DNA of 64,000 nt from Gammaproteobacteria bacterium (GTDB lineage: Bacteria > Pseudomonadota > Gammaproteobacteria > Steroidobacterales > Foliamicaceae). The first letter of the stretch is position 1. Each line of letters opens with the position of its first letter. A program made the position numbers and the translations under genes. The notes below the pieces were generated by a model, which worked only from the letters and a program-made list of their open reading frames with translations, had not been told where the DNA came from and did not search any database. The DNA lies in contig VYBN01000034.1 in assembly GCA_009844425.1 (NCBI GenBank), positions 55,301-119,300 of the forward strand. Reading direction: 5' to 3'. Below, in pieces: positions 29,651 to 51,537 of the stretch.

Positions 29651-29757
29651 CCTCGCCCTTTGTTCGCTCCCCTTTCTCGCCGGAGACGCCATCCCTGGCT
29701 CGGTTTCGCTGTCCTGCTTCAACGCTCCTGCGAGAAAGGGGAGCGAACAAAGGGCTT
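29651..29757. repeat. palindromic GGA-core element, copy 1
   Basis: Perfect 26 bp inverted repeat 29655-29680 / 29730-29755 around core GGAGACGCCATCCCTGGCTCGGTTTCGCTGTCCTGCTTCAACGCTCC. Confidence 0.92.
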
Positions 29758-31551
29758 GAGCGGTAGTGCCGGGATGGCGGCGGCGAGCAGCGCTCCGGGT
29801 CCGGCGTGTGCGCTCACTACCGCGCCCAGTTCGGTCACGTAGCTGGACACGAGGTTCGGGACACTTTCCACCAGCAGTTCGTGCAGGCGTTGCCCGGATT
29901 CCGGGCGGTTGGCGTGCGCGACCGCAATCCGCAACGGCTGGCGGGTGGGAAAGCGCTTGAGCACGTAGCGCGCAAAGCGCTTGACCCGGTCGCCCGACCG
30001 GCGCTGCACGCCGCAGGCCTTCACGGTTCCGTTGCGGCCGATGCCGAGCAGGGCGTCCACCTTGAGCAGGTCACTGAGTTGCTTGATGCGCGGCGAGATG
30101 CGTCCGCCGCGCACGCCGTGGGACAGGTCCTCGATCACGCCGAAGGTGCGGGCGGCCTCCAGCAAGGGCGGCAGGGCAGCAATGATCTCGTCCGCGCCGG
30201 CTCCATCCCGCGCCCACTCGGCTGCGTGCTGAACGATGAGGCCATGGCCGATGGAAACGTTGACGCTGTCCAAGACCCGTACTTTCCCGCCGGTCAATTC
30301 CGAAGCCACGCTGCGCGTCACGTCGGCGGTGCCGCTTACCGCGCCGGCCAGCGTGATCCACACGGACTCGGGGAAATGTCCGGCCAGAAATCCCATTGCC
30401 CGTTCCATGTCGCCGCGCGGCGGCGTGGCCGTTTGCGCTCTCTCGCCATGGTCCTCCATCGCCCGCCACAGCCAGTCCGCCGGCAGCCCCAACCCGTCGA
30501 GATAGCCTTGCTCGCCCAGGTGGATGCGCAGTGGCGCTGTCGTGATCCGCAGTTCCCTGACCAGCTCCGCGGGGATGTCCGCGCCGCTGTCGCAACCGAT
30601 GGGAACTCTCGAGCCGTTCAGCAGCGCGAATTGCACGTGCATGTCGTCGGCCTTCTCGCTGCTGACTTCGCCGTGCTCGTGGGCGACGGCAAACACCTCG
30701 TGCGGCGTGTCCGTGTGTATATGCAGGCGCACGATGCGGGCGCCGCCCGCCACGACGATGGAATCACCCAACGGCTGGATTTCCTCGCGTATGCCGGCCG
30801 GCGTCAGGTCCTCGCCGGAGATCATGCACTCGGTGCAATAGCGGAATTCGGACTCCTCGCCCAGATCGTGGGCGTGCGCGGTGCCCGCCAGGGCTCTTGC
30901 CGCGCCGGCAAACTCGCCCGCCTCGGCGCCCCGCCCTGTCCTGACGAGCTGTTCGATGCCGCCCAGCAGCTGCGCCAGGCCGGCGCCGCCGGCATCGACC
31001 ACGCCGGCGCGCCGAAGCACTTCGAGCTGTTCCGGGGTTTTCTGCACCGCGTCGTCGGCCGCTTCCCGAGCGGCCGACAGGAGGGCGGTGAGCTCGCCCT
31101 CCGGCGAAACGTCAAGCGCGCCAATGCCGACCGCGCTCATCACGCTCAGGATGGTCCCCTCGCGTGGATTGCTCAGGCCGTTGCGGGCGGACTCGGCCGC
31201 CGCCTTCAGCCCCAGCGCGACGTCGCGCGTATCCAGGCGCGCCTTGTCCTCCCAGGCCTCGGCCAGTCCGTGCAGGAACTGCGCCAGTATCACTCCGGAA
31301 TTCCCCCGCGCGCCGTATAACGCTCCCCTGGCCGCGGCATGGGCCACCTCGCCGGCGCTCCGCGACGGTGACTCGGCCAGCGCAAGGATCACGGCCTGCG
31401 CCGTATGCGCCATATTCAGGCCGGTGTCGCCGTCCGCCACCGGAAACACGTTGATACGGTCCAGCTCCTCCCGGCTGTTCTGAAGCTGCAGCATGCCGGC
31501 GGTGATGGCTCGCGCCAGACGCCGGCCGTCGAGGTAGTGAATGCCTTTCAT
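29719..31551 (-). CDS. DAK2 (FakA-like) plus DegV (FakB-like) fusion protein
   Basis: INVFPVADGDTG, GARGNSG, EGTILSV, VVDAGG, YCTE, HIHT; then DSGAD, GGRI, HAGPG. Confidence 0.88.
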   Translation of the reverse strand: MKGIHYLDGRRLARAITAGMLQLQNSREELDRINVFPVADGDTGLNMAHTAQAVILALAESPSRSAGEVAHAAARGALYGARGNSGVILAQFLHGLAEAWEDKARLDTRDVALGLKAAAESARNGLSNPREGTILSVMSAVGIGALDVSPEGELTALLSAAREAADDAVQKTPEQLEVLRRAGVVDAGGAGLAQLLGGIEQLVRTGRGAEAGEFAGAARALAGTAHAHDLGEESEFRYCTECMISGEDLTPAGIREEIQPLGDSIVVAGGARIVRLHIHTDTPHEVFAVAHEHGEVSSEKADDMHVQFALLNGSRVPIGCDSGADIPAELVRELRITTAPLRIHLGEQGYLDGLGLPADWLWRAMEDHGERAQTATPPRGDMERAMGFLAGHFPESVWITLAGAVSGTADVTRSVASELTGGKVRVLDSVNVSIGHGLIVQHAAEWARDGAGADEIIAALPPLLEAARTFGVIEDLSHGVRGGRISPRIKQLSDLLKVDALLGIGRNGTVKACGVQRRSGDRVKRFARYVLKRFPTRQPLRIAVAHANRPESGQRLHELLVESVPNLVSSYVTELGAVVSAHAGPGALLAAAIPALPLKPFVRSPFSQER

Positions 31552-32195
31552 CGATCCATTGCCAGAAGAACGTTCTTCCCCTGATAGGCCAGAATCACGC
31601 CGTGAGGGGCTATTTCCAGCACCTCCGGTCCGTCCTCCAGGCGTTCGCCCACGCGATAGTTCCGCCCATTGATCTGCACGAAGCTGCGACCGCCTTCCGG
31701 GCCGTAGAAGAGCATCTGCAGTGTGAGTTCCGGCCAGTCCGGCGGCGCCATTTCCAGCGGAAGCTCTTCCGCCGGCAGCAAGATTGGCGTCGCAGGCGCC
31801 GGCTCGGCCGCGGCGGCGGGGACCGGGGCCTCGGGCGAAGGCTGTTCCTTTACGGTCAAAGCGGACGGGCCGCCAGGGGCTGCCGGGCCGAGGCCGCGGG
31901 ACATCTCCAGGCCGTTGATCGTGGCGGGCGCCGTGTCGGGGCGTGTCGCGCCGGCTTCGGTGGCCGCGGACATGTCGGCGGCGTCGGCCGGAGCGGGGAG
32001 TGGGGCCGGGGATGGAGGAGCTGCCAGACGCCACGCCAGGAAGACGCCGGCAATGATCGGGGCGGCCGCGAGCACGGCAATCCAGCGCCGCCGCCTGCCG
32101 CTCCGATGTGCGGGAGGAGGATGGGCGTACACCGGCCGGGCGAATCGGGACCGCCGCTTCTCGGAAAGCTTGAGTGCGTCGAGGACGAAAGACAT
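31548..32195 (-). CDS. gspB: GspB/ExeB-like protein
   Basis: MSFVLDALKLSE, TM, Pro/Ala linker, FVQING..YRVGE, EIAPHGVIL. Confidence 0.8.
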   Translation of the reverse strand: MSFVLDALKLSEKRRSRFARPVYAHPPPAHRSGRRRRWIAVLAAAPIIAGVFLAWRLAAPPSPAPLPAPADAADMSAATEAGATRPDTAPATINGLEMSRGLGPAAPGGPSALTVKEQPSPEAPVPAAAAEPAPATPILLPAEELPLEMAPPDWPELTLQMLFYGPEGGRSFVQINGRNYRVGERLEDGPEVLEIAPHGVILAYQGKNVLLAMDR

Positions 32196-32199
32196 CGGA

Positions 32200-33051
32200 T
32201 CAGCCGGTCGCGCCGCTCCAGAGCGCCCCTGCCGGTGCGCCCTGGCGCCCGTAAATCTCGCGCGCCGCCAGCCGCACCAGCTGCGGACCGATGTCATGCT
32301 CCTTGCGAACGAAAGCCCCCAGCAGAGCGCGGTCGGCCACGACGTTGATGATCCTGGGAATTCCGCGGGATATCCGGTGCAAGCGGCGTCTTGCGCGGGC
32401 ATTGAATACCTCACGGCTTGAACCGGCCACCTTCAGCCGATGCCGGAGGTACTCGCCGGTTTCCGCGCGCGACAGCGGCCCCAGGTGGCAGCGCGCCGTG
32501 ATGCGTTGCGCCAGTTGTCGCAGGTCCCGCCTCGCCAGCGTTTCGTGCAACTCCGGCTGGCCCACCAGCACGATGCCCAGCAACTTGTGCCGGGCGGTCT
32601 CGAGATTGGTCAGCCGCCGCACCTGCTCCAGCAGGTCCGCGCCCAGCGCCTGGGCCTCGTCCACGATCAGTATCGTCCGCCTTCCGGCGGCATAGGTTCG
32701 CAGCAGCTTGCGATTCAGCGCCGCGCCCAGGGAGGAGGGATTCTCCGCCCAGCGGGGCGTGCGCATTCGCAATTCACGGCAGATGGTTTGCAGAAACTCG
32801 ATGCGGGTAGCGGGCGGATCCAGCACGATCGCGGTGTCGGTCCGTTCCGGCAGGCGTTCCAGCAGGCACCGGACCAGCATCGTCTTGCCGGTACCCACCT
32901 CACCGGTCAGTTGGGTGAAGCCGCCGTTTTCCCGGACCCCGTACAACAGGTGGGCGAGGGCCTCGGCGTGGCGCGCGCTCAGGTACAGGTAGCGCGGGTC
33001 GGGCGTAATGCTGAAAGGCCTTTCGCTCAAGCCGTGAAATTGCTCGTACAT
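32200..33051 (-). CDS. gspA: ExeA/GspA family ATPase (short form)
   Basis: PFSITPDPRYLY, GEVGTGKT, DEAQ, LVGQPEL, GIPRIIN. Confidence 0.88.
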   Translation of the reverse strand: MYEQFHGLSERPFSITPDPRYLYLSARHAEALAHLLYGVRENGGFTQLTGEVGTGKTMLVRCLLERLPERTDTAIVLDPPATRIEFLQTICRELRMRTPRWAENPSSLGAALNRKLLRTYAAGRRTILIVDEAQALGADLLEQVRRLTNLETARHKLLGIVLVGQPELHETLARRDLRQLAQRITARCHLGPLSRAETGEYLRHRLKVAGSSREVFNARARRRLHRISRGIPRIINVVADRALLGAFVRKEHDIGPQLVRLAAREIYGRQGAPAGALWSGATG

Positions 33052-33086
33052 GGCCCCCAGGATCCGCCTTGGTGTTCCTCTTCGCG

Positions 33087-33989
33087 TTATTTCATTGTAG
33101 AGGCGGAGTGCGTGCCGCGCATGAAGCCGATCAGCCACTGCAGTCCGCCCGCCCGATCCCCGAAAACCCCGCATGCGGTGCGCATGATCGCCGTCAACTC
33201 CCCAATCCGTTCCTGCGCCGCCTGCGTCCCGAATCGCTGCACCCAGGAAGGCAGGTTTGCTCCGCCGCCTTGCGGCTGCTGCCGCCGATCGATATCCCGA
33301 TCCGCCAGGTCGTCGCGTATCTGGAACGCCAGGCCGAGGGCGTCGGCGAACACTTCCAGCGAATGCCTCTGGCGCACCGCCAGATCGGGGCGCACGCAAG
33401 CCGGCGCCAGCGCCGCGGCGCGGAAAAGAGCTCCGGTCTTGGTTCGATACGCGTGTTCCAGTTCCGCTACATCGGGTCGCTCGCCGCCGTTCAGGTCCAG
33501 GTCCTGCCCGCCCGCCATGCCCGCCGAACCGGCGCATTCCGTCAGGAGCTCGATCAGGCGCACCCGGGCGCCATCGTGGCCGTTCAGCGAGGAGTGGGTT
33601 GCCAGGACCTGCCAGGCCAGGGTCTGCAGCGCGTCGCCGACCAGCAGCGCGGTGTCCTCGCCGTACATCTTGTGAATGCTGGGCTTGCCGCGCCGGAAGT
33701 CGTCGTCGTCCATGCAGGGCATGTCGTCGTGCACCAGCGAGTAGCAATGAATCAGTTCGATTGCGGCGGCCGGCGCATCGACGAGCGAGTCCGGGACGCC
33801 GGCCGCTTCGGCGGCCGCATAGCAGACCAGCGGCCTCAGGCGCTTTCCGCCGCGCATGACCGCTTCGCGCATTGCGCCGTGTAATCGCATGGGCGTCGTC
33901 GCCGCGCTCGGCAGCACGCGCTCGAGCAAGGCGTTGACGCGAGCCTGGTAGCCGGCCCGCCTGTGTTCAAAGTGCTCGCTTGAGTCCAT
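33087..33989 (-). CDS. ispA: farnesyl diphosphate synthase / geranyltranstransferase
   Basis: GGKRLRP, HDDMPCMDDDDFRRG, GQDLD, KT, FQIRDD. Confidence 0.9.
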   Translation of the reverse strand: MDSSEHFEHRRAGYQARVNALLERVLPSAATTPMRLHGAMREAVMRGGKRLRPLVCYAAAEAAGVPDSLVDAPAAAIELIHCYSLVHDDMPCMDDDDFRRGKPSIHKMYGEDTALLVGDALQTLAWQVLATHSSLNGHDGARVRLIELLTECAGSAGMAGGQDLDLNGGERPDVAELEHAYRTKTGALFRAAALAPACVRPDLAVRQRHSLEVFADALGLAFQIRDDLADRDIDRRQQPQGGGANLPSWVQRFGTQAAQERIGELTAIMRTACGVFGDRAGGLQWLIGFMRGTHSASTMK

Positions 33990-34141
33990 GCTGGCGTCGG
34001 GTGATCATGTCGCGCGCTGCCCGCCGCTACGGGGCGGCTGCTGAGGAAGGAAGGAATTTTATGTCGCGCCCGCCCGGTGTTCTCCTAAAATCCCGCAAGG
34101 AGATTCTCGGCCGAGGTAGCGCCGTGTCAAGCGAGGACGTC

Positions 34142-35110
34142 ATGCAGGGCAGCGCCATCGCGCACCCCAACGTAGCGCTGGTGAAATACTGGGGCAAGCG
34201 GCCGGCCCGCGGCAACCTGCCGGCCATGGGGTCGCTGTCGCTGACGCTGGGGTTCCTGGCGACCCGCACGACGGTGCGCTTTGACCCGGCCGGGGGTCGG
34301 GACGCGCTGACGCTGAACGGCTGCCGAAACTCCAGGGACCTCAAACGGATGCAGGACTGCCTTGCGCCCCTGCGCCAACGGGCCGCCGAGTCCGGGTCCG
34401 CGACGGTGGAATCGCGCAACGATTTTCCTACCGGCGCGGGCCTGGCTTCGTCCGCCTCCGGGATGGCGGCGCTGGCCCTGGCCGGCGCATCGGCGCTTGG
34501 CCTGGCCGAAGAACTTGACCTCGTCGGGCGGTCGGCAATGGCGGGTTCGGGGTCCGCGCCCCGCTCGCTGCATGCCGGAGTCGTGTTGCTGTCGATCGAT
34601 CGGGAGGGAAGCTGGTCCTGCAAGTCACTGCTTGCGCCGGAGGAATGGCCGCTTAAGGTGGTTGTGGCGGTTACGCAAACCGGGCTCAAGCAAACGGACT
34701 CCCGCTCGGGCATGGAGCTCACCCGGCGCACGTCGCCCTTCTACAAGGCCTGGCTCAAAAGCCAGAAGGGCGACCTTGAGGATGCCCGCCGCGCCGTGGC
34801 GCTTCGTGATTTCGGACGTCTTGCCGAATTGTCCGAAGGCAATTGCCTGAGAATGCATGCCACCGCCATGGGCGCTTCGCCACACCTGATGTATTTCAAT
34901 GGCGCCACCATCGAGTGCATGCACCGGGTCAAGGCCCTGGCGCGCGACGGCCGGCCGGTGTTCTTTACCGTGGACGCGGGACCGCAGGTCAAGGCGGTCT
35001 GTCTCCCGGACGTGCTCGATGAAGTATGCGATGCGCTGGGCCAGGTGCCCGGAGTGCATCAGGTGCTTAGCGGCGATCTGGGCGGCGGAGCGCGGCTCGT
35101 CCCGGGTTAG
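34142..35110 (+). CDS. mvaD: diphosphomevalonate decarboxylase
   Basis: NVALVKYWGK, PTGAGLASSASG, SGSA, SRSGM, DAGPQVK. Confidence 0.92.
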   Translation: MQGSAIAHPNVALVKYWGKRPARGNLPAMGSLSLTLGFLATRTTVRFDPAGGRDALTLNGCRNSRDLKRMQDCLAPLRQRAAESGSATVESRNDFPTGAGLASSASGMAALALAGASALGLAEELDLVGRSAMAGSGSAPRSLHAGVVLLSIDREGSWSCKSLLAPEEWPLKVVVAVTQTGLKQTDSRSGMELTRRTSPFYKAWLKSQKGDLEDARRAVALRDFGRLAELSEGNCLRMHATAMGASPHLMYFNGATIECMHRVKALARDGRPVFFTVDAGPQVKAVCLPDVLDEVCDALGQVPGVHQVLSGDLGGGARLVPG

Positions 35111-35119
35111 CTGGCCTCG

Positions 35120-36073
35120 ATGCCGGTATCCAGGATCCAGGCCCGGGCCCCGGGCAAGCTGTTTCTTTCCGGCGAGTACGCGGTTCTGCTGGATGCGCCG
35201 GCCGTGGCCTGCGCCGTTGGCAGGCATGTCAATGCGCGCTTTCTGTCTGGCGATACCGCCGAGGATCCCGAAGCCGCGCGCTGGCGGCAGGCGGCCGGCG
35301 AGATACTGCTCCGGCACGGTCTGGATCCGGCGCCGGCCGGCCGGCCGCTTGAGATCGACAGCAAGGCGCTGTACTCGGACGGCGAAATCAAACTGGGCTT
35401 CGGATCCAGCGCCGCCGTGGCCGTGGCGGTAAGCGGATTGCTGCTTGCTGCGCAGGACGGGGGCCGCCGGTCTCCCACCGTCGACCGGCTGCGCCTCGCC
35501 GATGACCTGCACAGGGCGCTTCAGGGCCCGGGAGGGAGCGGCGTTGACGTGGCGGCGAGCCTGCACGGCGGAGTGATTGCGGCAGAGGGTGATCGGGTTG
35601 ACAGCCTTCACTGGCCCCAAGGCCTTCATTGCGAGGTGATCTTCACCGGCCGCGATGCGGACACCGCCCATGCCATCGGGCGATTCCGAGAGGCGCTGCA
35701 GGGCGGGAAGGGCGCGCACTTCAGGGCGCTGTGCGCCGCCGCGGAATCGGCCCGGCGGGCCTGGAATCGAAGCCCGGAAGCGATCGTCGCGGCGGTGCAG
35801 GAATACGCGGCGGCCTGGCGGAAACTGGATCGCTCGGCCGGGCTGGGCGTATACAGCCGCGAGCATCTGCGATTGGAAAGTCTGGCGCGCGCGGCCGACT
35901 GCGTGTACAAGCCGTCCGGGTCCGGCGGCGGCGACTGCGGGCTGGCCTTCTCGACCGACCGGGGGAAACTGCTCGCCTTGCGCGAGACCGTCCGGGAAGC
36001 GGGGTTCCCGCCGCTGGCGGTCGATCTCGGCGTGGAGGGCTTGCGGGTCCGCCGTCAGTCCGACCGCGCGTAG
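35120..36073 (+). CDS. phosphomevalonate kinase-like GHMP kinase
   Basis: APGKLFLSGEYAVL, KLGFGSSAA, SGVDVAAS, KPSGSGGGD; operonic with mvaD. Confidence 0.82.
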   Translation: MPVSRIQARAPGKLFLSGEYAVLLDAPAVACAVGRHVNARFLSGDTAEDPEAARWRQAAGEILLRHGLDPAPAGRPLEIDSKALYSDGEIKLGFGSSAAVAVAVSGLLLAAQDGGRRSPTVDRLRLADDLHRALQGPGGSGVDVAASLHGGVIAAEGDRVDSLHWPQGLHCEVIFTGRDADTAHAIGRFREALQGGKGAHFRALCAAAESARRAWNRSPEAIVAAVQEYAAAWRKLDRSAGLGVYSREHLRLESLARAADCVYKPSGSGGGDCGLAFSTDRGKLLALRETVREAGFPPLAVDLGVEGLRVRRQSDRA

Positions 36074-36084
36074 CGCTTCACGCC

Positions 36085-36609
36085 CTAGTTCGTCACCTCA
36101 ACCGTAATGACTTCGGACATTACCGGCGGCTCGTGCGGGATGTGCAGGTCGTCGCCCAGCAGCAACTGCAGCGTATAGGTGCCGGGCGCCAGTGACAGCT
36201 CCACGTTGGTCTGGGCCAGGCCGAAGTGCATGTGGGCGTCGTCGGTGATGATCGGCAGGTCCATGCGCGGTAATGGGGTGTTCACCAGCAGGTGATGATG
36301 TCCGGTGTTCTCCCCGATCTCTCCGGCGGGCAGCAACTTCATGCCCTCCAGCCCGAACTCCACCGTGAAGGGGGAAGTCAGCCCGGCGCCGTCCCCGGGG
36401 GAGACGAACCATACGCGCGCGCCTTCGGGCGAGGGCTTGCGCGGAGGCAGCGCGACTTCAGGCGCAGGCGCGCTCGCCGCATCCGCGTCCGGCGCGGCCT
36501 CTTCCGGCGGCTCGGGGCTTCCGCAGGAAACCATAAGCGCCGCGGCCAGCAGCATTGCGAAAGTGGTTCTGTTCATGGACAAAGCGATTGTCCTGGATAA
36601 ATCGATCAT
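36085..36609 (-). CDS. DUF4399 family lipoprotein
   Basis: Lipobox MVSC, GHHHLL, HFGLAQT, LQLLLGD..HIPH. Start uncertain. Confidence 0.75.
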   Translation of the reverse strand: MIDLSRTIALSMNRTTFAMLLAAALMVSCGSPEPPEEAAPDADAASAPAPEVALPPRKPSPEGARVWFVSPGDGAGLTSPFTVEFGLEGMKLLPAGEIGENTGHHHLLVNTPLPRMDLPIITDDAHMHFGLAQTNVELSLAPGTYTLQLLLGDDLHIPHEPPVMSEVITVEVTN

Positions 36610-36635
36610 AGCCTGACCTCCCGGGCCATGGTTCA

Positions 36636-37616
36636 CTACAACATCAGATCGCTTGCCGCCGCCCGCTCGTCAAGCAATTCCTCGCCCGTGATGCGAATTT
36701 TCTCCTGCGAGAAATCGTCCAGGTCCAATCCCCGCACGATTTCCCAGTCGCCTTCCTCGCAGCGAACGGGATAGGAGAAGAACACCCCTTCGGGCGAACC
36801 GTAACTGCCGTCGCCGGGCACCGCCATGCTTACCCAGTCGCCCTCAGGCGTGCCGTGCGCCCAGTCGCGCATGTGCTCGATGGCGGCGTTGGCGGCCGAG
36901 GCGGCGCTGGACGTGCCGCGCGCCTTGATTACACTGGCGCCCCGCTGCTGCACGGTGGTGATGAATTCACCCCGCGCCCAGTCCCTGTCGACGAGTTCTG
37001 CAGCCGCCTTGCCGTCCACGGTCGCCTGCGACAGGTCCGGATACTGGGTGGCGGAATGGTTGCCCCAGATGGTCATGCGCCTGACGGTGCTGACGTGGTG
37101 GCCCGTGCGCGCCGCCAGTTGCGCGCAGGCGCGGTTGTGGTCCAGTCGGGTCATGGCCGAAAAATTGCGCGGATTCATGTCCGGTGCGTTCGACGACGCG
37201 ATCAGAGCGTTGGTGTTGGCGGGGTTGCCCACCACCAGCACCCTGGCGTGCTCGTCGGCATGCTCGTTGAGCGCCGCCCCCTGCCGCGAGAAGATGCGCG
37301 CGTTCTCGGTCAGGAGGTCGGAGCGCTCCATGCCGGGTCCACGTGGCTTTGCGCCGACGAGGAAAACATAGTCGGCGCCGCGGAAACCCTCCTCCAGGCG
37401 GTCCGTGGCGATCACCGCCTCAAGCGAGCCGAAGGCGCAGTCTTCGAGCTCCATCGCGACGCCCTCGAGCGCCTGCATTGCGGGAGCGATTTCGATCAGC
37501 CGTAACGTGATCGACTGGCCATGGCCAAGGAGTTGTCCCGAAGCGATGCGGAACGCGAGCTGGTAGCCGATCTGACCGGCCGCCCCGGTGATGGCGATCT
37601 GCGTGGATGCTGACAT
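36636..37616 (-). CDS. mdh: malate dehydrogenase
   Basis: [35 protein letters not shown]. Confidence 0.96.
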
Positions 37617-37755
37617 TTCTCTAAGGCTTCAGTCGGAGGACGGGCATTGTATCGCCGACGCATCCATTTGGGGGTCGGGCGGCATCTATGTAGCGAGTTT
37701 GGAGCAAGGGTGAAGCCTTGAACAGAGGCCACCGTCGACACAGAGGAGCACAGCG

Positions 37756-38175
37756 ATGACTTACGGTACGGCATTTTTCTCCGCCCTGGCCTGCGCGTTC
37801 GCCCTTGCCGCGAGTCCGGCGGGCGCCGGGGTGGCTTCGGACGCCGGAACGGCAATGGGAACGGAACGGATCTCAAGCGACGAGATCGGGGAACTGAAGG
37901 AACTGCTGGTCGCCCACGGGATACCCCCGGCGCGCCACCTGGCCGCGGAAATCAGCCGGGAAATAACCGGGAGCAATCGCGAGGCTGCAACGGCGGCGCT
38001 GTTCCGCCCGCCCGTCGTGCATGCGCCGGGAGCCGCGCCGGCGCCCACCGCGGTCGCACAGGCCGGAAAAGCCGGAGGCGCCGAGCCCGCCCGTGCAGAT
38101 ACGCCGCGCGGTACCCAATCGCCTGTTCGCAACTTGCTGCGAAGGGTCCTGCGCTTCCTGAATTTTTCGAACTAG
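37756..38175 (+). CDS. hypothetical secreted protein
   Basis: RBS GAGGAG and a signal-peptide-like N-terminus; no recognisable family. Confidence 0.5.
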   Translation: MTYGTAFFSALACAFALAASPAGAGVASDAGTAMGTERISSDEIGELKELLVAHGIPPARHLAAEISREITGSNREAATAALFRPPVVHAPGAAPAPTAVAQAGKAGGAEPARADTPRGTQSPVRNLLRRVLRFLNFSN

Positions 38176-38178
38176 AAG

Positions 38179-38212
38179 GCGAGGCGCCCCGAGGGACGTG
38201 ACGCGCCCTCGC
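38179..38212. terminator. hairpin between convergent genes
   Basis: GCGAGGCGC ... GCGCCCTCGC stem; no clear U tract. Confidence 0.35.
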
Positions 38213-38233
38213 TCCCGTGTGTTCCGGGCTGGC

Positions 38234-38584: not shown

Positions 38585-38857
38585 TGTTTCCTCCTTCGGA
38601 CTACCCGCTTTTGCGGCGGGCCGCGCAGCACTGCCTATGCGCCGATGTGCCACCAGCGGGCCGCTGGCCGGCCCATTATGCCCGAAGCCCGGGCGCCGCA
38701 AGCCTGACACGACACCGGTCCCGGTGCGCTTACAATTGGCAGCCGCACAGCGCCGCCATCGCGTGGATTCACCGACAGGTCACCCCTCGAAATGCAACCT
38801 CTTCGTACCAGCGCGGCGTCCTTCCGGTAGGTCCGTCTCACGGAGCGCGAAGCGCCC

Positions 38858-40411: not shown

Positions 40412-40415
40412 ACCG

Positions 40416-43160: not shown

Positions 43161-43174
43161 TTGTTACTGCCGAC

Positions 43175-43279
43175 CCTCGCCTGCTCTATCACTTTCCCTG
43201 TGGAGAGACGCCATCCCTGGCTCGATTCTCGCTGTCCCTGCTCCAACGCTCTCCACAGGGAAAGTGATAGAGCAGGCTT
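43175..43279. repeat. palindromic GGA-core element, copy 2
   Basis: Perfect 29 bp inverted repeat 43179-43207 / 43249-43277 around ACGCCATCCCTGGCTCGATTCTCGCTGTCCCTGCTCCAACG. Confidence 0.92.
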
Positions 43280-43300
43280 TAGTCGAAAGCTTGCGCTCTT

Positions 43301-43411
43301 CGCCTGTCCCATTACATAGCCCTTCCAGGAGTATTGGAGGCAGGGATGCCCGAGCAAGCTCCATGGATGGATTTATGCGTCTCCGGGAAGGGCTATGTAA
43401 TGGGACAGGCG
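43301..43411. repeat. palindromic GGA-core element, divergent copy in opposite orientation
   Basis: Perfect 26 bp inverted repeat 43301-43326 / 43386-43411; core GGAGTATTGGAGGCAGGGATGCC...CCATGGATGG...CGTCTCC aligns with the reverse complement of the other cores. Confidence 0.85.
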
Positions 43412-43439
43412 CGCCAGCGGACGGCGAGCGTAGTTCGGT

Positions 43440-45929
43440 TCAGTCGCCGCGCAGTACGCTCATGAGGGGGGCGTTGAGGGCGCCGCGCACGGCAAGCATT
43501 CCGGCCAGGCCGATCAGGACGGCGCCTGCCGCCACGCCCGAGGCCAGCAGCAGCGGATCGAGGCTGTAGTCGAGTTCGAATACGCGGTCGGCAAGCAATA
43601 GCCCCAGCACGCTGGCGGCGCCCGCCCCCAGCAGCCCGGCCACGGCGCCCAGCACGCCGAACTCCACGGCGAGGCTCCGCAGTATGACCCCTCTGCGCCC
43701 GCCGAGGGTCCGCAGCACGGCCGTTTCCACCGAACGCTCGCCGCGATTCGAGCGCACAGCCGCAAGCACCACCACCACTGCCGCCAGCAGGCTGAAGGCG
43801 AACACGAATTGCACCGCCAGACCGGCGCGGTCCAGTATTCGCCGCGCCTGACCGATGATGGCGTCCAGATCGATGATGGTCACCCCGGGATAGCGCTTGA
43901 GCAGGGCCATCAGAATCTGCCCCTCTTCCTGGGGGATGTAGGCGCTGGCGATCATCGTATGCGGCAGATCGGCGGCGTCCGGCGAGAGCATGAGCTGGAA
44001 ATTCGGATCGAAGGTGTCCCAATCGACGCTGCGCAGGTTGCTGAGTTCCGCCTGCAGGGCCACGCCGCCGACATCGAAGGTCAGGCGATCCCCAAGGTCC
44101 ACTCCCAGGCGGGCCGCGGTCTGCGAGTCGGCCGACAATTCCGGCGGCCCGGCGTGCTCCTCGTCCCACCACTCCCCGCTTACCACCCGGTCGCCTTTCG
44201 GGATGCCCGCCGACCAGGAAACGTTGGCGGCGCGTTCGATGAAGCGGCGGCCTTCAGGGAACGGAAGGGGCCACTCTGCGGCGGGGATGCCGTTGATTTC
44301 CGTAAGCCGCGCCCTGATGAAGGGCAGCGCATCGGACAGGTCCGGGACGCTCTCGCCGAGCAGATCGCGCATGCCCGGCCATTCCTCGGGCGCGATGTTG
44401 ATGAAGAAGTAGTTGGGCGCGTCTTCCGGCATGGATTGACGCCAGGCGTCCAGCAGGTCGGTGCGCATCAGGCCCAGCAGCAGCACGGCCATCAGCCCCA
44501 GGCCGAACCCGGCGACCTGCGCCACGCTCTCTCCGCCGCCGCGGCGGATATTGGCCAGGCCGTGCCGCCACGCCACCCCGCCGGCGCCCCGCACGGCCGA
44601 CAGCGCCCGGACCAGCAGCCAGCCGAGCAGCATGCCGGCCCCCGCCGTCAGCGTCAGGCCCAGGCTCATCCACAGGGCCAGTTCGGCGTCGCCGGCCAGA
44701 AGCGCGACAATGAGCAGGATGGCCGCGACCGGCGCGCCCTGGCGCAGCAGCAGTCCCGGCCCGCGCATGGGCAGGTCTTGCCGGAGAACGCGCAGCGGTG
44801 AGGTCCTCGCCAGGCTGCGCAGCCAGGGGACGACGCAGGCGCCGGTGACCGCGATGGCGATCGCCGCCCCGGGCAGCAGGCTGCGCAGGCTTGCCGGAGG
44901 CAGGGCCAGATTGATGACTTCGCGCGCGTAGGCCGAAAGCGCGAGGTGGGCGGCGTAGCCGGCAATGCTGCCCAGGCCGATTCCCAGCGCCGACACGATG
45001 AGGACCGGGATCAGGCAGCGTCGAAAGACCTGGCCCTGCGTGGCGCCGAGGCATTTCTCCAGCGCCGCGGTCACCAGCCGCCGGCGCGTATAGCTGCGCG
45101 CGGCGAGGACGGTGGCGACGGCCGACAGGATCACGCTCACAAGCGCGGCCAGCGCCAGGAAACTTCCCGCCCGGTCCACGGTGGAAGCGAGGGTCTGACT
45201 CGCCTCCTCGAGGTTCTGGATGCGCTCGTCGGAACGCAGCCCGCCTTCCTCGGCCGCGCGGAATTCAAGCACAAGGTCTTTTTGCCCGGCGAACAACTGA
45301 CGGTAGGAGACCCGGCTGCCGGGGCGCACCACGTCCATCTCGGGAACGTCCGCCAGGTTGGCCAGCACCGTCGGGCCGAGCTGCTGAAAGCCGGTTCCGG
45401 GATCCGGCCGGTAGCGCAACACGCGCGTCGCGCGCAGGTCCCTGGAGCCGACCCGCATGATCGCTCCCACGTCGATGTCCAATTGCGCAAGCAGGGCTGC
45501 GTCCACCCATGCTTCCCCCGGCGGTGGGATGCCTTCCGCGACGGTGGCGGCGCCATAGGGTTCCGCCGAAGTGCGGACCTCGCCGCGCAACGGATAGTCG
45601 CCGGTGACCGCCACCACCGAACTCAGGGCGGTCATCTCGCCGGCCACCGCCACCGTGGCGAAGGACCAGGTCTCGGCGCTTTGCAGGGAATAGGCGCCAG
45701 CGCGCTCGAGCCGGCCGGGGTCGGGCCGCACCGGGGCGGCGACGGCCAGGTCGGCCGCCAGCACTTCCGCCGCCTGCTGCCGCACTGCCGCGCTTATGCG
45801 CTCGGTCAGAAAACTCACCGCGGCGACCGCCGCCACCGAAACGGTGAGCGCCGAGAGCATCACGGTAAATTCGCCGGCGCGGAGTTCGCGCAGCCATCTC
45901 CGCCATCGCGTGGAGTGTGTAACGGTCAT
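43440..45929 (-). CDS. ybbP: ABC transporter permease, YbbP-like (two FtsX-type domains)
   Basis: RELRAGE, YPLRG, GSRVSY, PNYFFINI, LRTLGG. Confidence 0.85.
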   Translation of the reverse strand: MTVTHSTRWRRWLRELRAGEFTVMLSALTVSVAAVAAVSFLTERISAAVRQQAAEVLAADLAVAAPVRPDPGRLERAGAYSLQSAETWSFATVAVAGEMTALSSVVAVTGDYPLRGEVRTSAEPYGAATVAEGIPPPGEAWVDAALLAQLDIDVGAIMRVGSRDLRATRVLRYRPDPGTGFQQLGPTVLANLADVPEMDVVRPGSRVSYRQLFAGQKDLVLEFRAAEEGGLRSDERIQNLEEASQTLASTVDRAGSFLALAALVSVILSAVATVLAARSYTRRRLVTAALEKCLGATQGQVFRRCLIPVLIVSALGIGLGSIAGYAAHLALSAYAREVINLALPPASLRSLLPGAAIAIAVTGACVVPWLRSLARTSPLRVLRQDLPMRGPGLLLRQGAPVAAILLIVALLAGDAELALWMSLGLTLTAGAGMLLGWLLVRALSAVRGAGGVAWRHGLANIRRGGGESVAQVAGFGLGLMAVLLLGLMRTDLLDAWRQSMPEDAPNYFFINIAPEEWPGMRDLLGESVPDLSDALPFIRARLTEINGIPAAEWPLPFPEGRRFIERAANVSWSAGIPKGDRVVSGEWWDEEHAGPPELSADSQTAARLGVDLGDRLTFDVGGVALQAELSNLRSVDWDTFDPNFQLMLSPDAADLPHTMIASAYIPQEEGQILMALLKRYPGVTIIDLDAIIGQARRILDRAGLAVQFVFAFSLLAAVVVVLAAVRSNRGERSVETAVLRTLGGRRGVILRSLAVEFGVLGAVAGLLGAGAASVLGLLLADRVFELDYSLDPLLLASGVAAGAVLIGLAGMLAVRGALNAPLMSVLRGD

Positions 45930-46002
45930 CGCGGCGGGAACTTTCGCATATACTGCACGCCCGCTCAAGGCAAAGCCGAAGTGTCAGGGGGCGCTGCACT
46001 TT

Positions 46003-48171
46003 GTGAAAGCCTGTTTCCCGCCTTTCCTCCTGGCGGCCGCCGCGCTTGGCGCCTGCGCTGCCGAGGACCCGCAAATGCCCAAAGACCAGACAACCGTCGA
46101 GCCGCCGGTCGCGGACCGCCGCCCCTACTCCTACAGCCATCACGGCGTCACCATCGAGGACCCCTACCACTGGCTGAGGGACCGGAGTTACCCTCAGGTC
46201 GACGACCCGGACATCCTGGCCTATCTGGAGGCGGAAAACGACTACTTCGAGAGCGTGATGGCGCCACGCAACGAGCTGGTGGACACCCTGTTCGAGGAAA
46301 TCAAGGCGCGCCAGAAGCCCGACGACTCCGGCGTCCCGTTCAAGGACGGGGACTGGCGCTATCAATGGCGTTTCGAGGAAGGCGGGCAATACCGCATCTG
46401 GCTGCGCTGGCCGGCGGGGGATGCCGAATCGCCGGACTCTCCCGGCGCAAACGCCGAAATCATATTGGACGAACCGGAGCTGGCCGCCAAGCATGATTAC
46501 TTCCGCCTCGGCGCGCTGTCGGTCAGCCACGGCGGCGACCTGCTCGCCTACAGCACCGATACCGACGGCTCGGAGCGTTACCGGCTGTTCGTCAAGGACC
46601 TGAAGACCGGCGAGTTGCTGGAGGACGCCATCGAGAACACCCTGGGCGGCGCGGTCTGGGCGGCGGACGATTCCGCGTTGCTGTATGTGGTCGTGGACGA
46701 GAACTGGCGTCCCTACCAGGTGCGAAGGCATGTGCTGGGCCAGCCCGTGGAAAGCGACTCCGTCGTTTATGAAGAGCACGATCCAGGATTCTTCGTGCGC
46801 CTGTCGGAATCGGCCTCCGAGCATTACATATTGATCCACACCTCCGGGCATACGTCGTCCGAGGCCTACGTCATTCCCGCCGATGCAAGCGACGCGGCAC
46901 CGCTGCCGGTGGCGCCCCGGCGCGCCGACCATGAGTACTTCGTGGACCACCAGGAGGACCGGTTCGTTATTCGCACCAACGACCGGCACAGGAACTTCCG
47001 CCTGGTGACCGCTGCCGGCGATGATCCATCCGAGCCCAACTGGACGTCGCTGCTGGAGGGATCCGCGGAGCTCTACATTCGCGGATTCGCCGTCTTTGCC
47101 GATTTCATCGCGGTAGTGGAGCGAACCGACGGCCTGAACGCCATCCGGCTGATCGGGAGGGACGGGACCACGACCCACGTGGACCTGCCGGAATCCGCCT
47201 GCTCGGTGGGCCTGGGCGACAATGCGGAGTTCCTCACGCGAACGTTGCGGCTGGAATATTCGTCCATGATCACGCCGCCCACCGTTTTCGACTACCGGGT
47301 CGATTCGGGCGAACTCATGGCCCTCAAGGTTCGCGAGATTCCCAGCGGCTACGCGAAGGAGCAGTATCTGACCGAACGGCTGATGGCGCCGGCCCGTGAC
47401 GGCGCGGAGATTCCCGTGTCGCTCGTACGCCGCAAGGACACGCCGGCGGACGGCGGCGCGCCGTTGTACCTGTACGGATACGGCGCGTACGGGTTTGCCG
47501 TTCCGCCCTCATTCTCCACCAGCCGGCTGTCGCTTCTGGACCGGGGCTTTATTTATGCGATCGCCCACATCCGCGGCGGTGACGATCTCGGCTACCACTG
47601 GTACGAAGCCGGCAAGCTTGATCGGCGCGTCAACACCTTCAACGATTTCGTGGACGTGGCGCGCTTTCTGATCGACGCCGGCCACGCAGGGAAAGGCCGC
47701 ATCGCCATAGCCGGCGGCAGCGCCGGCGGTGAACTCATGGGCGCGGTCGTCAACCAGGCCCCCGAGCTGTGGGGCGCGGTGGCGACTCACGTGCCGTTCG
47801 TTGACGTGCTCAATACCATGCTGGACGAATCCCTGCCGCTTACGCCCACGGAATGGCCGGAGTGGGGCAATCCGATCGAGGACAAGGCCGCGTTCGAGCT
47901 GATCCGGTCCTATTCCCCGTACGACCAGTTGGTCGCCCGCGAGTATCCGCCGATGCTGGTGACTGCCGGCCTGAACGATCCGAGGGTGACCTACTGGGAA
48001 CCGGCCAAGTACGTCGCCAGGCTCAGGCGGCTGAAGACCGGCGACAGCCCGCTGTTGCTGAAGACCAACATGGGCGCCGGCCATGGCGGCATGTCCGGCC
48101 GCTATGACTCCCTCTACGAGGTTGCCGAGGAATACGCTTTCATGCTCTGGTCGCTGGGGCTGGCCGACTAG
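46003..48171 (+). CDS. ptrB: oligopeptidase B (S9A), probable lipoprotein
   Basis: DPYHWLRD, YGYGAYG, GGSAGG, DPRV, GAGH; LGAC lipobox if the start is GTG 46003. Confidence 0.92.
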   Translation: MKACFPPFLLAAAALGACAAEDPQMPKDQTTVEPPVADRRPYSYSHHGVTIEDPYHWLRDRSYPQVDDPDILAYLEAENDYFESVMAPRNELVDTLFEEIKARQKPDDSGVPFKDGDWRYQWRFEEGGQYRIWLRWPAGDAESPDSPGANAEIILDEPELAAKHDYFRLGALSVSHGGDLLAYSTDTDGSERYRLFVKDLKTGELLEDAIENTLGGAVWAADDSALLYVVVDENWRPYQVRRHVLGQPVESDSVVYEEHDPGFFVRLSESASEHYILIHTSGHTSSEAYVIPADASDAAPLPVAPRRADHEYFVDHQEDRFVIRTNDRHRNFRLVTAAGDDPSEPNWTSLLEGSAELYIRGFAVFADFIAVVERTDGLNAIRLIGRDGTTTHVDLPESACSVGLGDNAEFLTRTLRLEYSSMITPPTVFDYRVDSGELMALKVREIPSGYAKEQYLTERLMAPARDGAEIPVSLVRRKDTPADGGAPLYLYGYGAYGFAVPPSFSTSRLSLLDRGFIYAIAHIRGGDDLGYHWYEAGKLDRRVNTFNDFVDVARFLIDAGHAGKGRIAIAGGSAGGELMGAVVNQAPELWGAVATHVPFVDVLNTMLDESLPLTPTEWPEWGNPIEDKAAFELIRSYSPYDQLVAREYPPMLVTAGLNDPRVTYWEPAKYVARLRRLKTGDSPLLLKTNMGAGHGGMSGRYDSLYEVAEEYAFMLWSLGLAD

Positions 48172-48992
48172 GGACTGGCGCGGCGCTTGACGCCGGTTTC
48201 GCTAAGTATGGTGCTGGAGATTTCCTCGATGGAGCGATGCGTCGTGTCGATGTAGCTGATGCCGTGCTGCCTGAACATTCTCTCGGCGCTGCGCAGTTCG
48301 AAACGAACCTGCCTCGATGAGGAATAGCTGCCGTCCGGGCGCCGTTCGCGGCGGATCTGGATCAGGCGGTCCACCGAAATCGTGAGTCCATAGAGCTTCC
48401 GGCGATGCTCGAGAAGTGGCTTGGGCAGCCGGCCCGATTCCATGTCGTCCTCGGTGAGAGGGTAGTTGGCGGCGAATACGCCGTATTGCAGCGCCAGGTA
48501 CAGGCAGGTGGGCGTCTTTCCCGACCGCGAAACCCCGGTAAGTATCAGGTCGGCCTCGTCGTAGTGGATGATTCCGTGGCCGTCGTCGGAATCCATCGCG
48601 AAGTGGGTCGCGTCAATCCGGGAGTTGTAGCTGGACGCGTCCGACATCCCGTGCGTTCGCCCCAGGGTATGCGAGGACTTGACCCCGAGCTCCTCCTCCA
48701 GCGGCGCCAGGAATTCCGCGAAATAGTCCAGAACCAGGCCCCTGGAGCGCAGCAATGGCGCGCGGTTGGCGTTATGCACGAAACTGGTGAAGACGATCGG
48801 CCGGCAGCCGGTGCGTTCGGCTTCCCAGTCAATCCGCTTCGCCACCTGGACCGCCTTCTCGACGCTGTCGACGAACGGAACCGTAATCGGCACGAAGGTG
48901 ATTCCGTCGAACTGCGTAAGGAGGCTGTGGCCCAGCGTCTCGGCGGTGACGCCGGTGCGGTCGGACACGAAAAATACCGTGCGCTCTGCCAT
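48168..48992 (-). CDS. ppsR: PEP synthase regulatory kinase/pyrophosphorylase
   Basis: [23 protein letters not shown]; divergent from ppsA. Confidence 0.92.
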
Positions 48993-49030
48993 ACTACGCT
49001 ATCGGGTTTGGGGGCGAGCGGGAGTATAGC

Positions 49031-51388
49031 TTGCGCGAGTACGTAATCGGCCTTTCGGCCATCGGGAAGGACGATCTGGAGCGCGTCGGCGGGAAGAACG
49101 CGTCTTTGGGCGAAATGATCTCCCACCTCGAAGTACTGGACATACGCGTTCCCGACGGCTTCGCCACGACATCGGACGCATTCTCCGAATTTCTCTACCA
49201 GGACGGGCTGGGCGAGGCCATCCACGGCATGCTGGACGGCCTGGACGTGGATGACGTCGAACTGCTCGGCCGCACCGGCGCTCATATACGCGAACTGATC
49301 GGCAAGGCGCCGCTGCCTGGCGGCCTCGAGCGGTCGGTCCGATCGGCTTTCGAGCGGCTTTGCGACGGCGCGGAGATCGGTGTCGCGGTTCGGTCCTCGG
49401 CAACGGCGGAGGACTTGCCCGAAGCGTCATTCGCCGGACAGCAGGACACCCTGCTCAACGTGCGCGGGCCGGACCACGTCGTTGCGGGAATTCGCGAGAT
49501 TTACGCCTCGCTGTTCAATGACCGGGCCATCGCCTATCGGGTCCACCAGGGATTCGATCACCGCCGGGTTTCGCTTTCGGTGGCCGTGCAGCGCATGGTC
49601 CGCAGCGACCTGGCCAGTTCCGGCGTGCTCTTCACGCTGGATACCGAGTCGGGGTTCCGCGACCTGGTGCTGATTTCCTCGAGCTACGGACTGGGCGAAA
49701 CCATCGTTCAGGGCGCGGTCAACCCGGACGAGTTTTACGTCTACAAGCCGGGTCTTGCCCGTGGCCGCAAGGCGGTCATCCGGCGCAACCTGGGCAGCAA
49801 GGCACTGAAGATGGTCTATTCCGACGGCGACGGCGGGCGAGTTGCCACCGTGGAAGTACCGAGGGAGCAGCGCGACCGGTTTTCGCTCTCCGACGCGGAC
49901 GCCGAGGAACTGGCCAGGCAGGCGGTGGCGATCGAGCGGCACTACGGCCGGCCCATGGACATCGAGTGGGGCAAGGACGGTGTGGACGGCCATCTCTACA
50001 TCCTGCAGGCGCGCCCGGAGACGGTGAAGAGCCGGGCGGACCAGACCCTGGTGCGGTTCGAGCTCAAGGAGCGTTCCAGGGTGCTGAGCAGCGGGCGCAG
50101 CATAGGCCAGCGCGTGGGGGCCGGCGTCGCGAGGATCGTGTCCAGCGTGGAACGGATGAATCTCATTCAGCCCGGGGACGTGCTGGTGGCGGACATGACC
50201 GACCCCGACTGGGAGCCGGTCATGAAGCGGGCGGCGGCGATTGTGACCAACCGCGGCGGGCGCACATGCCACGCTGCGATCATTGCCCGCGAACTGGGCA
50301 TTCCGGCGGTCGTGGGTTGCGGGAACGCCACCGGCGATATTCCGGACGGGACGGAAGTAACGGTTTCCTGCGCCGAAGGCGACGAGGGATTCGTCTACCG
50401 GGGCAGGCTGCCTTACGAGGAACGGTCCATGCGGCTGGGCCGGCTTCCGGAAATCCCGGTGCGGCTGGCCATGAACGTTGGCAACCCCGATCGCGCTTTT
50501 GCCTTCGCGGCCATTCCCAATCACGGTGTGGGCCTTGCCAGGCTAGAATTCATCGTCAACCGGATGATCGGCGCGCACCCCAACGCCATCCTCGAATTCG
50601 ACCGGCAGGACCCGGATGTGCGGGAACTGATCGTTGAGCAGATGGCGGGTTACGCCGATCCCGTTTCCTTCTACGTGGAGAAATTGGCCGAAGGCATTGC
50701 CTGTATCGCCGCGGCCTTCGCGCCCGAGCCGGTCATCGTGCGGTTGTCGGATTTCAAGTCCAACGAGTACGCCAACCTGATCGGCGGCGCGCGCTACGAA
50801 CCCAGGGAGGAGAACCCCATGCTCGGCTTTCGCGGCGCCGCGCGCTACGTGGACGAGCAATTCAAACCCTGCTTTGAACTGGAGTGCCGGGCGCTGCTGA
50901 AGGTTCGCAGGGACATGGGGCTGGAGAACGTCCAGGTTATGGTGCCCTTCGTTCGCACGGTTCAACAGGCGCGCGAAGTGGTCGATCTGCTGGCCGCGAA
51001 CGGCCTTGAGCGCGGCGTGGACGGCCTGAAACTCATCATGATGTGCGAGCTGCCCGGCAATGCCTTGCTTGCCGGGCAGTACCTCGAATTCTTCGACGGC
51101 ATGTCGATCGGCTCCAACGACCTGACCCAGCTCACGCTCGGCCTGGACCGCGACTCGGGACGAATAGCGGCGCTGTTCGACGAACGGGACGAGGCCGTCA
51201 GGCGCCTGCTGGAGATGGTCATCGCCGCTTGCCGGGCGCGGGACAAGTACGTGGGGATTTGCGGTCAGGGGCCGTCGGACCATCCGGACTTCGCCCGCTG
51301 GCTGGTGGACAAGGGAATCGACAGCCTGTCGCTGAATCCCGACTCGGTGCTGGATACCTGGCTCCACCTGGCCAAGTCGGAGTCTTAA
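49031..51388 (+). CDS. ppsA: phosphoenolpyruvate synthase
   Basis: [37 protein letters not shown]. Confidence 0.97.
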
Positions 51389-51432
51389 GCTTCTTGCGCT
51401 TCGATTCCGCTTTCTAGTGCCTGTTTGTGCTT

Positions 51433-51537
51433 CCTCGCCTTTCGCTCGTCCCCCTCCTCGTTGGAGACGCCATCCTGGCTCGATTCTCGCTGTCCCTGCT
51501 TCAACGCTCCCACGAGGAGGGGACGAACGAAAGGCTT
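51433..51537. repeat. palindromic GGA-core element, copy 3
   Basis: Inverted repeat 51437-51461 / 51512-51535 (one mismatch, one bulge) around GGAGACGCCATCCTGGCTCGATTCTCGCTGTCCCTGCTTCAACGCTCC. Confidence 0.92.

Follow-up and report, generated by a model that had tools for sequence, protein, structure and literature searches.

A TwoAYGGAY-like family of repeats with conserved cores and variable, mutually complementary arms in a genus of Gammaproteobacteria

How do the two arms of a palindrome remain complementary to one another when their sequence differs from copy to copy? The question is raised by four elements (e1 to e4) located in a 64,000-nucleotide stretch of a gammaproteobacterial genome, hereafter called the window (GenBank assembly GCA_009844425.1, contig VYBN01000034.1, positions 55,301 to 119,300 of the forward strand). 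A preliminary description had listed four related palindromes here, and all four were found where it had placed them, each with a conserved core of 40-49 nt enclosed by a near-perfect stem of 29-31 bp. The evidence presented below makes it probable, though by no means certain, that they belong to a genus-wide, amplified, and mobile-like family representing a diverged variant of the TwoAYGGAY type (Rfam RF01731), and that the pairing of the arms is kept by copying at the DNA level. The elements and one solitary flank motif are listed below; for e1 to e4, the strand given is the one whose core loops carry GGA (the TwoAYGGAY-like strand).

e1, 29651-29757, minus strand: A-type core at 29681-29729; perfect 26-bp arms at 29655-29680 and 29730-29755
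e2, 43175-43279, minus strand: A-type core at 43208-43248; perfect 29-bp stem formed by 43179-43207 and 43249-43277
e4, 43301-43411, plus strand: B-type core at 43332-43380 with two small hairpins; 31-bp stem formed by 43301-43331 and 43381-43411, with one mismatch
e3, 51433-51537, minus strand: A-type core at 51467-51506; arms at 51437-51466 and 51507-51535, with one mismatch and one 1-nt bulge
Solitary flank motif GCGCTTCGATTCCGC, 51396-51410, plus strand: located upstream of e3, read from the sequence

Anatomy, abundance, and likeness to TwoAYGGAY

Inspection of the sequence confirmed that e1 to e3 share a core and the ends CCTCGCC...GGCTT. The remaining element, e4, had been described as a diverged, inverted relative. 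It does lie on the opposite strand and has a related core, but it is not an odd relative, because B-like cores outnumber A-like cores in the source genome (G000; 3.03-Mb assembly, 64% G+C, 50 contigs, 94% complete), with 122 versus 59 among the 181 cores of an nhmmer profile census. A blastn search with the two core types detected 119 loci, 42 of the A-type (like e1 to e3) and 77 of the B-type (like e4), and further copies with variant or extended cores, beyond the 181, were met during the checks of arm matches. The density reaches approximately one copy per 17 kb, and truncated as well as nested copies are present. Within the window, a 21-nt core word occurs twice (at most three mismatches) versus zero times expected from 100 shuffles.

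Stem and distance counts demonstrated that the pattern first noted for the four elements, i.e., a constant core and variable arms that are each the complement of their own partner, holds for the whole family. Specifically, 160 of the 181 loci possess an ungapped stem of at least 22 bp, which measures 28-31 bp in 145 of the 160; 69 of these 160 stems are perfect and 66 contain one mismatch. Most mismatches are found at a single inherited position 5-6 bp from the core, and outside the inner 7 bp, mismatched pairs amount to 24 of 2,389 (1.0%). The stems are almost purely Watson-Crick, with wobble-type pairs, counted on either strand, accounting for 25 of 3,138 stem pairs. The mean ungapped distance between copies is 0.48-0.52 for the arms and 0.11-0.17 for the cores.

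The arms share a loose family consensus, and subfamilies are tied to short flank motifs outside the stem (GCGCTTCGATYCC, GTGCTTCCTC, and CTGGCG), which are conserved within subfamilies, whereas the long inverted repeats are not. According to the preliminary description, arms falling into a few identical subfamilies would point to ordinary REP-like divergence; related subfamilies do exist, but their members are diverged rather than identical. The motif GCGCTTCGATTCCGC is located immediately 5' of the left arm in approximately 40 copies of G000, and its solitary occurrence upstream of e3 is probably the leftover of an older, deleted element. A 13-nt flank-motif pattern with two mismatches allowed gave 466 matches, which are mostly due to chance and served only to spot a few extra copies. 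A likeness of the flank motif GCGCTTCGATCCCGCC plus the A-type core to the T-arm and acceptor of tRNAs was dropped on reading, as the stem is unpaired in most copies.

The predicted folding energies of the four elements range from -54.5 to -71.6 kcal/mol, with z values of -6.9 to -11.5 relative to dinucleotide shuffles, none of 200 of which was as good; the individual values are -68.5 kcal/mol (z -9.4) for e1, -65.6 kcal/mol (z -11.5) for e2, and -54.5 kcal/mol (z -6.9) for e3. The minimum free energy fold of e4 features the TwoAYGGAY layout, i.e., a basal stem and two hairpins. In the corresponding folds of e1 to e3, one hairpin is clear and the other weak, the first hairpin being degenerate in A-type cores. 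For 12 B-type copies, RNAalifold suggested a 29-bp stem and two small hairpins, with a change on both sides in 28 of the 36 pairs. A covariation count on the 12 copies revealed 95.6% paired cells and a score of 0.816, compared with 0.206 for shuffles (0 of 500 reached the observed score) and 0.11-0.15 for slid controls; this outcome is favoured by the sample, since the copies had been picked for stems of at least 28 bp with at most one mismatch and for diverse arms. Within the element, conservation is highest in the loops and in the covarying small stems. On one strand, the loops of the two small core hairpins read A(U/G)GGAU. At least one ANGGA word is present on this GGA strand in 152 of the 160 cores, with AUGGAU occurring 143 times and AGGGAU, the main alternative, 95 times; AYGGAY words occur at least twice in 53 of these cores, once in 40, and in none of the other 67.

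Some cores show additional features. In the copy at G000:C3:113880-114140, the core is enlarged by an insert of approximately 150 nt that holds several hairpins, and in other copies a loop is replaced by a hairpin of 25-30 nt (GCGCCGGGGCATCGGCGC). The plus strand of the A-type cores reads CTGGCTCGATTCTCGCT (43220-43236, 29698-29714, and 51478-51494), with a GG/GC spacing like that of the -24/-12 elements of sigma-54 promoters, a similarity that may be coincidental; B-type cores lack the GC element.

A search of the window against Rfam at the gathering threshold returned nothing. When the threshold was relaxed, the best structured match was TwoAYGGAY (RF01731) on the plus strand of e4 (28.9 bits, model positions 1-168), with the long stem of e4 aligned to the long outer stem of the model and its two hairpins aligned to the CAUGGAUG and CCAUGGAUGG hairpins; the remaining subthreshold matches (microRNA precursors and RUF6-5) reflect the long hairpin only. 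RF01731 also matched e1 with 22.2 bits on the minus strand (G000:C48:84945-85065) and, across G000, gave 21 full-length matches (E of at most 1) of 22-33.5 bits that comprise both core types. A covariance model built from the 12 B-type copies, termed R1, scored e1 with 67.3 bits on the minus strand and 41.9 bits on the plus strand, e2 with 67.4 bits, and e3 with 56.4 bits, the latter two on the minus strand; its 118 bits for e4 refer to a training sequence. The stem alone, on the wrong strand, earns 34-44 bits under R1.

Among 121 genomes of the same order, RF01731 exceeded its cut-off in two genomes of other genera (49.4 and 48.5 bits; 44.6 bits). These bona fide TwoAYGGAY loci have perfect or near-perfect basal stems of 30-31 bp that are unrelated to each other and to the family described here. 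R1 scored one of them with 67.8 bits and its divergent neighbour with 61.2 bits, which is the same range as for e1 to e3 (56-67 bits). Accordingly, we classify the family as a diverged variant of the TwoAYGGAY type that is not a member by Rfam's criterion.

Weinberg et al. (2010, PMC2864571) list TwoAYGGAY among probable RNAs whose role is unknown, and Gardner and Eldai (2015, PMC4333381) note that its outer stem is poorly conserved and propose CsrA binding. A 2026 preprint (10.64898/2026.09.22.753630) describes TwoAYGGAY as multi-copy and mobile-element-like. The novelty considered in the preliminary description is not supported, as a long unconserved basal stem with two GGA-loop hairpins already is the TwoAYGGAY architecture and the multi-copy, mobile-like character is contained in the preprint.

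The distribution was analysed in 22 genomes of the genus, G000 included; congeners are given codes such as G011 and G016. BLAST detected the A-type core in 15 of the 21 congeners of G000, and no match was obtained in 20 genomes that represent other families of the order. In a collection of 185,579 species genomes, an exact 20-mer of the core was found only in records titled uncultured Gammaproteobacteria, apart from one Mycobacterium match that was taken as chance. R1 detected the family in all 22 genomes, with copy numbers from 2 (G017) to at least 150. At most 150 candidates were scored per genome, and the top values, i.e., at least 149 for G000, at least 150 for each of G019 and G015, and at least 147 for G009, are lower bounds. 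G016, which at the e2 locus is the closest of the compared relatives (91.5% flank identity), gave 29 R1 matches versus at least 149 in G000; this gap may represent a real rapid expansion or repeats lost in assembly.

Gene context in the window and the genome was assigned with a crude gene caller based on G+C content at third codon positions that was made for this analysis. The copies are located within a few tens of nucleotides of a gene 3' end. As had been proposed, all four window elements lie between convergent genes; genome-wide, this applies to only 39 of 107 copies, compared with 14% of all intergenic intervals, and 59 copies lie between tandem genes. The notion that an element always abuts the stop codon of a convergent gene was ruled out by stem-end distances ranging from -37 to more than 30 nt. 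The GGA strand is randomly oriented where the flanking genes are in tandem (32 versus 27). Elements e2 and e4 form a doublet with a spacer of 21 nt and GGA strands facing away from each other; of the 20 adjacent pairs in G000, 15 are divergent and none is convergent with respect to the GGA strand.

Maintenance of arm complementarity

For the comparison of orthologous sites, 400 kb of congener G011 that are syntenic with part of G000 were fetched. Three orthologous pairs, i.e., e2, e4, and the copy at C3:56110, differ by 6, 7, and 6 changes in the outer arms, respectively, and all 19 are mirrored at the exact partner position, including all 6 arm changes in e2 and the 7 in e4. Of two further positions, one carries an unmirrored change, and the other is altered in both arms but does not pair in G000. 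In these pairs, the arms diverge by 26-29%, the cores by 4-17%, the mostly coding flanks by 10-18%, and one 24-nt noncoding spacer by 29% (7 of 24). Thus, in three orthologous pairs and relative to one short spacer, the arms drift in place at about the neutral rate. Stems of 28, 29, 30, and 31 bp all occur without bulges, and therefore insertions and deletions are mirrored as well.

The cores, in turn, can change orientation and type. In one orthologous pair, the arms and flanks agree while the cores face opposite ways (case 23), and in three G000 copies the core is inverted relative to the flank motifs. Another pair combines homologous arms and flanks with cores of different types (case 16).

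The preliminary description had suggested that one arm is copied from the other, which fits these data, as 19 of the 21 changed arm positions are mirrored and the stems are almost purely Watson-Crick. Template switching that copies one arm from the other is known at E. coli quasipalindromes, where it makes imperfect palindromes perfect. By analogy, during replication or repair one arm of a family element would template the other by intramolecular template switching at the inverted repeat, whereby a mutation in an arm would be either erased or mirrored. The same template switching could invert the core. The arms would then drift near-neutrally and yet remain Watson-Crick paired and fixed in length, and the similarity of the cores would be maintained by constraint or by exchange between copies, as in case 16. 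We favour arm-to-arm copying of DNA because it is the simplest single process that yields mirrored changes in place, Watson-Crick stems, bulge-free stems of 28-31 bp, and flipped cores.

Alternatively, the elements may be functional RNAs, namely, TwoAYGGAY-type modules in 3' untranslated regions (UTRs) or small RNAs that bind Csr/Rsm proteins and whose stem is kept by compensatory mutation. We regard this explanation as possible but unlikely. The conservation of the covarying GGA-loop hairpins and the ANGGA words in 152 of 160 cores speak for it, as do the presence of CsrA, which G000 encodes at C7:32186-32341, in 21 of the 22 genomes of the genus and the CsrA binding proposed for TwoAYGGAY by Gardner and Eldai (PMC4333381). 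The covariance models of CsrB and RsmZ (RF00018 and RF00166) found no match, and that of RsmY (RF00195) found two weak ones of 17.2 and 16.1 bits against a cut-off of 57; these searches covered three models, with RsmX and CsrC (RF02144 and RF00084) not included. Presumably, the Rfam clan holding the Csr/Rsm families is CL00106. Furthermore, the transition-type mismatches of the outer stem lean toward G.U on the GGA strand (12 versus 4). At least three different family copies are represented in contigs from an RNA library, which adds little weight, as DNA can occur in such a library.

Several properties of the family speak against this alternative. The random orientation among tandem genes implies that the GGA strand is co-transcribed in only about half of the copies, and the 21-nt spacer of the e2/e4 doublet leaves no room for a promoter. 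G.U pairs are almost absent, which is unusual for a 29-bp stem under RNA-only selection, the arms change at the rate of unconstrained spacer DNA, and selection could not easily produce insertions and deletions that are mirrored. Finally, copy numbers vary from 2 to at least 150 among close relatives, although CsrA is encoded in 21 of the 22 genomes. If the stem were maintained by selection at the RNA level alone, G.U pairs should be tolerated, double substitutions should accumulate much more slowly than neutral changes, and indels mirrored in both arms should be uncommon. Judged from the sequence, a CsrA-titrating role of the GGA-loop strand is possible; the random orientation and the range of copy numbers argue that most copies are not individually needed.

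A single RNA run contained any part of the window, in the form of seven contigs from which ends, strand, and level are not readable. Three of these contigs match the cores at 43322-43392 and 51478-51510 and then enter the arms of other copies. Therefore, several copies of the family are present in the RNA library, for which carry-over of DNA is a possible source.

A more far-reaching proposal, which would join both levels, appears rather improbable to us. TwoAYGGAY-type elements would primarily be mobile palindromes at the DNA level that are maintained and inverted by hairpin-templated copying, in a flip/flop loosely resembling that of parvoviral termini, and that spread without a known transposase family. 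Their transcripts would, incidentally or adaptively, scatter CsrA-type GGA hairpins in many 3' UTRs. If this were true, the repeats could themselves provide the RNA pool that titrates Csr proteins in the genus, which has CsrA but in which CsrB, RsmY, and RsmZ were not recognised by the three models searched.

The combined reading advanced here, i.e., a mobile-like variant of TwoAYGGAY whose arms are kept complementary by DNA copying, has to be weighed against the following points. The argument from rates is based on three orthologous pairs and a single short spacer, and strong selection for pairing may act in place of arm copying. Of the 16 transition-type mismatches outside the inner zone, 12 are G.U on the GGA strand, a weak hint of some constraint at the RNA level. 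None of the G000 copies reaches the RF01731 gathering score of 43 bits, the best being 33.5 bits, and strict AYGGAY words occur twice in only 53 of 160 cores. With respect to mobility, neither a target-site duplication nor a target consensus emerged from the junctions, which show direct repeats of 2 bp, 6 bp, or none and are ambiguous where the intergenic DNA has diverged. No enzyme that could mobilise the elements emerged; RAYT and reverse transcriptase do not track copy number.

Gain and loss of copies and candidate mobilisers

Within the 400 kb of G011, 31 copies of G000 could be placed by both flanks. Besides the three true orthologues, these comprise 2 sites with a different element, 23 sites without an element, and 3 undecided intervals with gaps of 2-2.5 kb. 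The 23 element-free sites consist of 19 intervals that are at least 90 nt shorter in G011, including that of e3 (approximately 150 nt shorter), and 4 sites recognised by alignment, including that of e1. Presence or absence of the whole element was seen at four further loci in other relatives, and different elements occupy the same intergenic site at three loci (cases 12, 34, and 63); one poorly aligned locus (case 36) was excluded from every count. A contig of the public run X2 joins position 43174 to position 43298 and thus reveals a related strain without e2. Another contig of this run joins 51384 to 51546 with eight other letters in between and lacks e3. At one "empty" site, the left flank motif persists together with a few base pairs from the outer end of the stem (case 38), for which reason the site is considered a deletion remnant.

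The family thus behaves like a non-autonomous mobile element whose whole units are gained and lost beside the 3' ends of genes, facing either way and frequently forming doublets. The original suggestion of a dispersed, non-autonomous, structured repeat family is supported. An origin of the arms as an inverted duplication of the target site was ruled out, as the empty sites lack the arm sequence.

Some copies extend into coding sequence. A minus-strand open reading frame ending at 29719 runs 39 nt into e1 (29719-29757), through the right arm into the core, so that the element provides the final 12-13 codons together with the stop codon. In G011, the orthologous reading frame lacks an element at the site and ends in a different tail of approximately 10 residues. 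Elsewhere, the copy of a relative starts within a stop codon and recreates it, with TGA at the empty site and TAA at the filled site (case 58).

Three other explanations of how the elements arise or spread were considered. According to the first, which is very unlikely, only the core is mobile and enters the loops of existing hairpins such as terminators or REP-like palindromes (REP, repetitive extragenic palindrome), so that the arms are host sequence. The pair with homologous arms and flanks but different core types (case 16) would be explained in this way, and some copies do lie beside a second, small-palindrome repeat (cases 46 and 134). However, the empty sites lack both arms and contain no resembling hairpin, which largely refutes insertion of cores into pre-existing hairpins; in addition, the arms share a loose consensus with subfamilies tied to flank motifs, and the arm differences between orthologues arise in place.

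According to the second, which we consider extremely unlikely, the elements are REPs or REPINs moved by a RAYT (Y1 HUH transposase), or a retro-element dispersed by means of a reverse transcriptase. In favour of this view, the elements are abundant palindromes in intergenic DNA, and GGC-TAC is found at many right flanks, corresponding on the other strand to GTAG next to the stem. The tetranucleotide GTAG is a hallmark of REPs. One RVT_1 gene is present on contig C37. On the other hand, Y1_Tnp is absent from G000 (94% complete) and was found in 5 of the 22 genomes of the genus, all with low copy numbers (11-33 copies). The reverse transcriptase has relatives in 7 of the 22 genomes, and the high-copy genomes G019, G015, G010, and G013 are not among them. 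Moreover, with variable arms and a conserved centre, the pattern is opposite to that of REPINs. In line with the earlier observation that the window holds no mobilising enzyme, none is encoded near the elements. The RVT_1 gene (locus L053, G000:C37:968-2455) encodes a single 495-residue reverse transcriptase on a short contig, with RVT_1 as its only Pfam domain.

The third idea, put forward in the preliminary description, that the variable arms serve as guides directed at targets in phages, plasmids, or the chromosome, is hardly credible: each copy does carry approximately 20 nt of arm sequence of its own, but 136 of 160 arms have no match of at least 18 nt elsewhere in G000, the seven places read among the outside matches of the other 24 arms were all further family copies or fragments, and a query with e2 and e4 had no match among 50,697 records of phages and 72,556 of plasmids, so that in the collections searched nothing outside the family is matched; furthermore, the arms evolve by point changes from subfamily ancestors and not by acquisition, and since both strands of each arm are present, a guide would be sequestered in a duplex.

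A second abundant repeat was noticed in G000. It consists of the paired small palindromes GAAGGCGTCTCGCCTTC and GAGGGCGGGACGCCCTC bracketed by CCTGGGAG...CTCCCAGG and has a REPIN-like layout; examples outside the window are located at G000:C1:35376-35412 and C5:25299-25335. A 17-nt pattern with two mismatches gave 155 matches, of which 7 lie within 150 nt of a TwoAYGGAY-like core, and at two sites (cases 46 and 134) a TwoAYGGAY-like element is located directly beside such a small palindrome.

Significance and comparison with known systems

Since 2010, no function has been assigned to the TwoAYGGAY motif, and its mobile-element-like behaviour was noticed only recently. The genus studied here represents a natural copy-number series ranging from 2 to at least 150, and it provides comparative evidence for mirrored, near-neutral evolution of the stem, for flipping and exchange of the core, and for a fast turnover near gene ends that sometimes rewrites a stop codon or a C-terminal tail. 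These features offer handles on how such elements persist and spread, in particular on DNA-level copying versus RNA-level selection and on a possible link to CsrA. For annotation, it is relevant that the Rfam threshold misses a family of TwoAYGGAY architecture with hundreds of copies.

With respect to mechanism, the family recalls the E. coli quasipalindromes and the flip/flop termini of parvoviruses, in which an arm is copied from an arm and an asymmetric tip can face either way. For these chromosomal repeats, such copying is a proposed process, and the family differs from both in that, as far as known, there is no nicking enzyme or linear end.

Among mobile repeats, REPINs are likewise abundant intergenic palindromes with a long hairpin that are mobilised in trans by something encoded elsewhere. 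They have conserved arms and a variable loop, whereas in the family the arm distance is approximately 0.5 and the core distance 0.11-0.17, and none of the high-copy genomes of the genus encodes a RAYT. Miniature inverted-repeat transposable elements (MITEs) such as Correia and ERIC share with the family the non-autonomous nature, the length of approximately 100-150 bp, the intergenic location, and the terminal inverted repeats, and they are often co-transcribed with neighbouring genes. MITEs possess conserved, transposase-binding terminal repeats and regular target duplications; in the family, it is the long inverted repeats that vary, and a regular duplication was not found.

The comparison with TwoAYGGAY itself reveals the most extensive agreement in architecture: two sequential small GGA-loop hairpins are placed on a shared long basal stem whose sequence is unconserved. 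Differences concern the loops, which in the family often read AGGGAU instead of AYGGAY, and the surroundings, as the three extra hairpins, the pseudoknot, and the upstream arrays of 5-6-mers of the Pseudomonas TwoAYGGAY were not seen and short flank motifs are present instead. The cores extended by an insert or a hairpin recall the "structure extensions" reported for TwoAYGGAY in Pseudomonas. According to the preprint (10.64898/2026.09.22.753630), TwoAYGGAY and the family also have in common the multi-copy nature, an extreme range of copy numbers, and an excess of divergent doublets, which for TwoAYGGAY amount to 68%.

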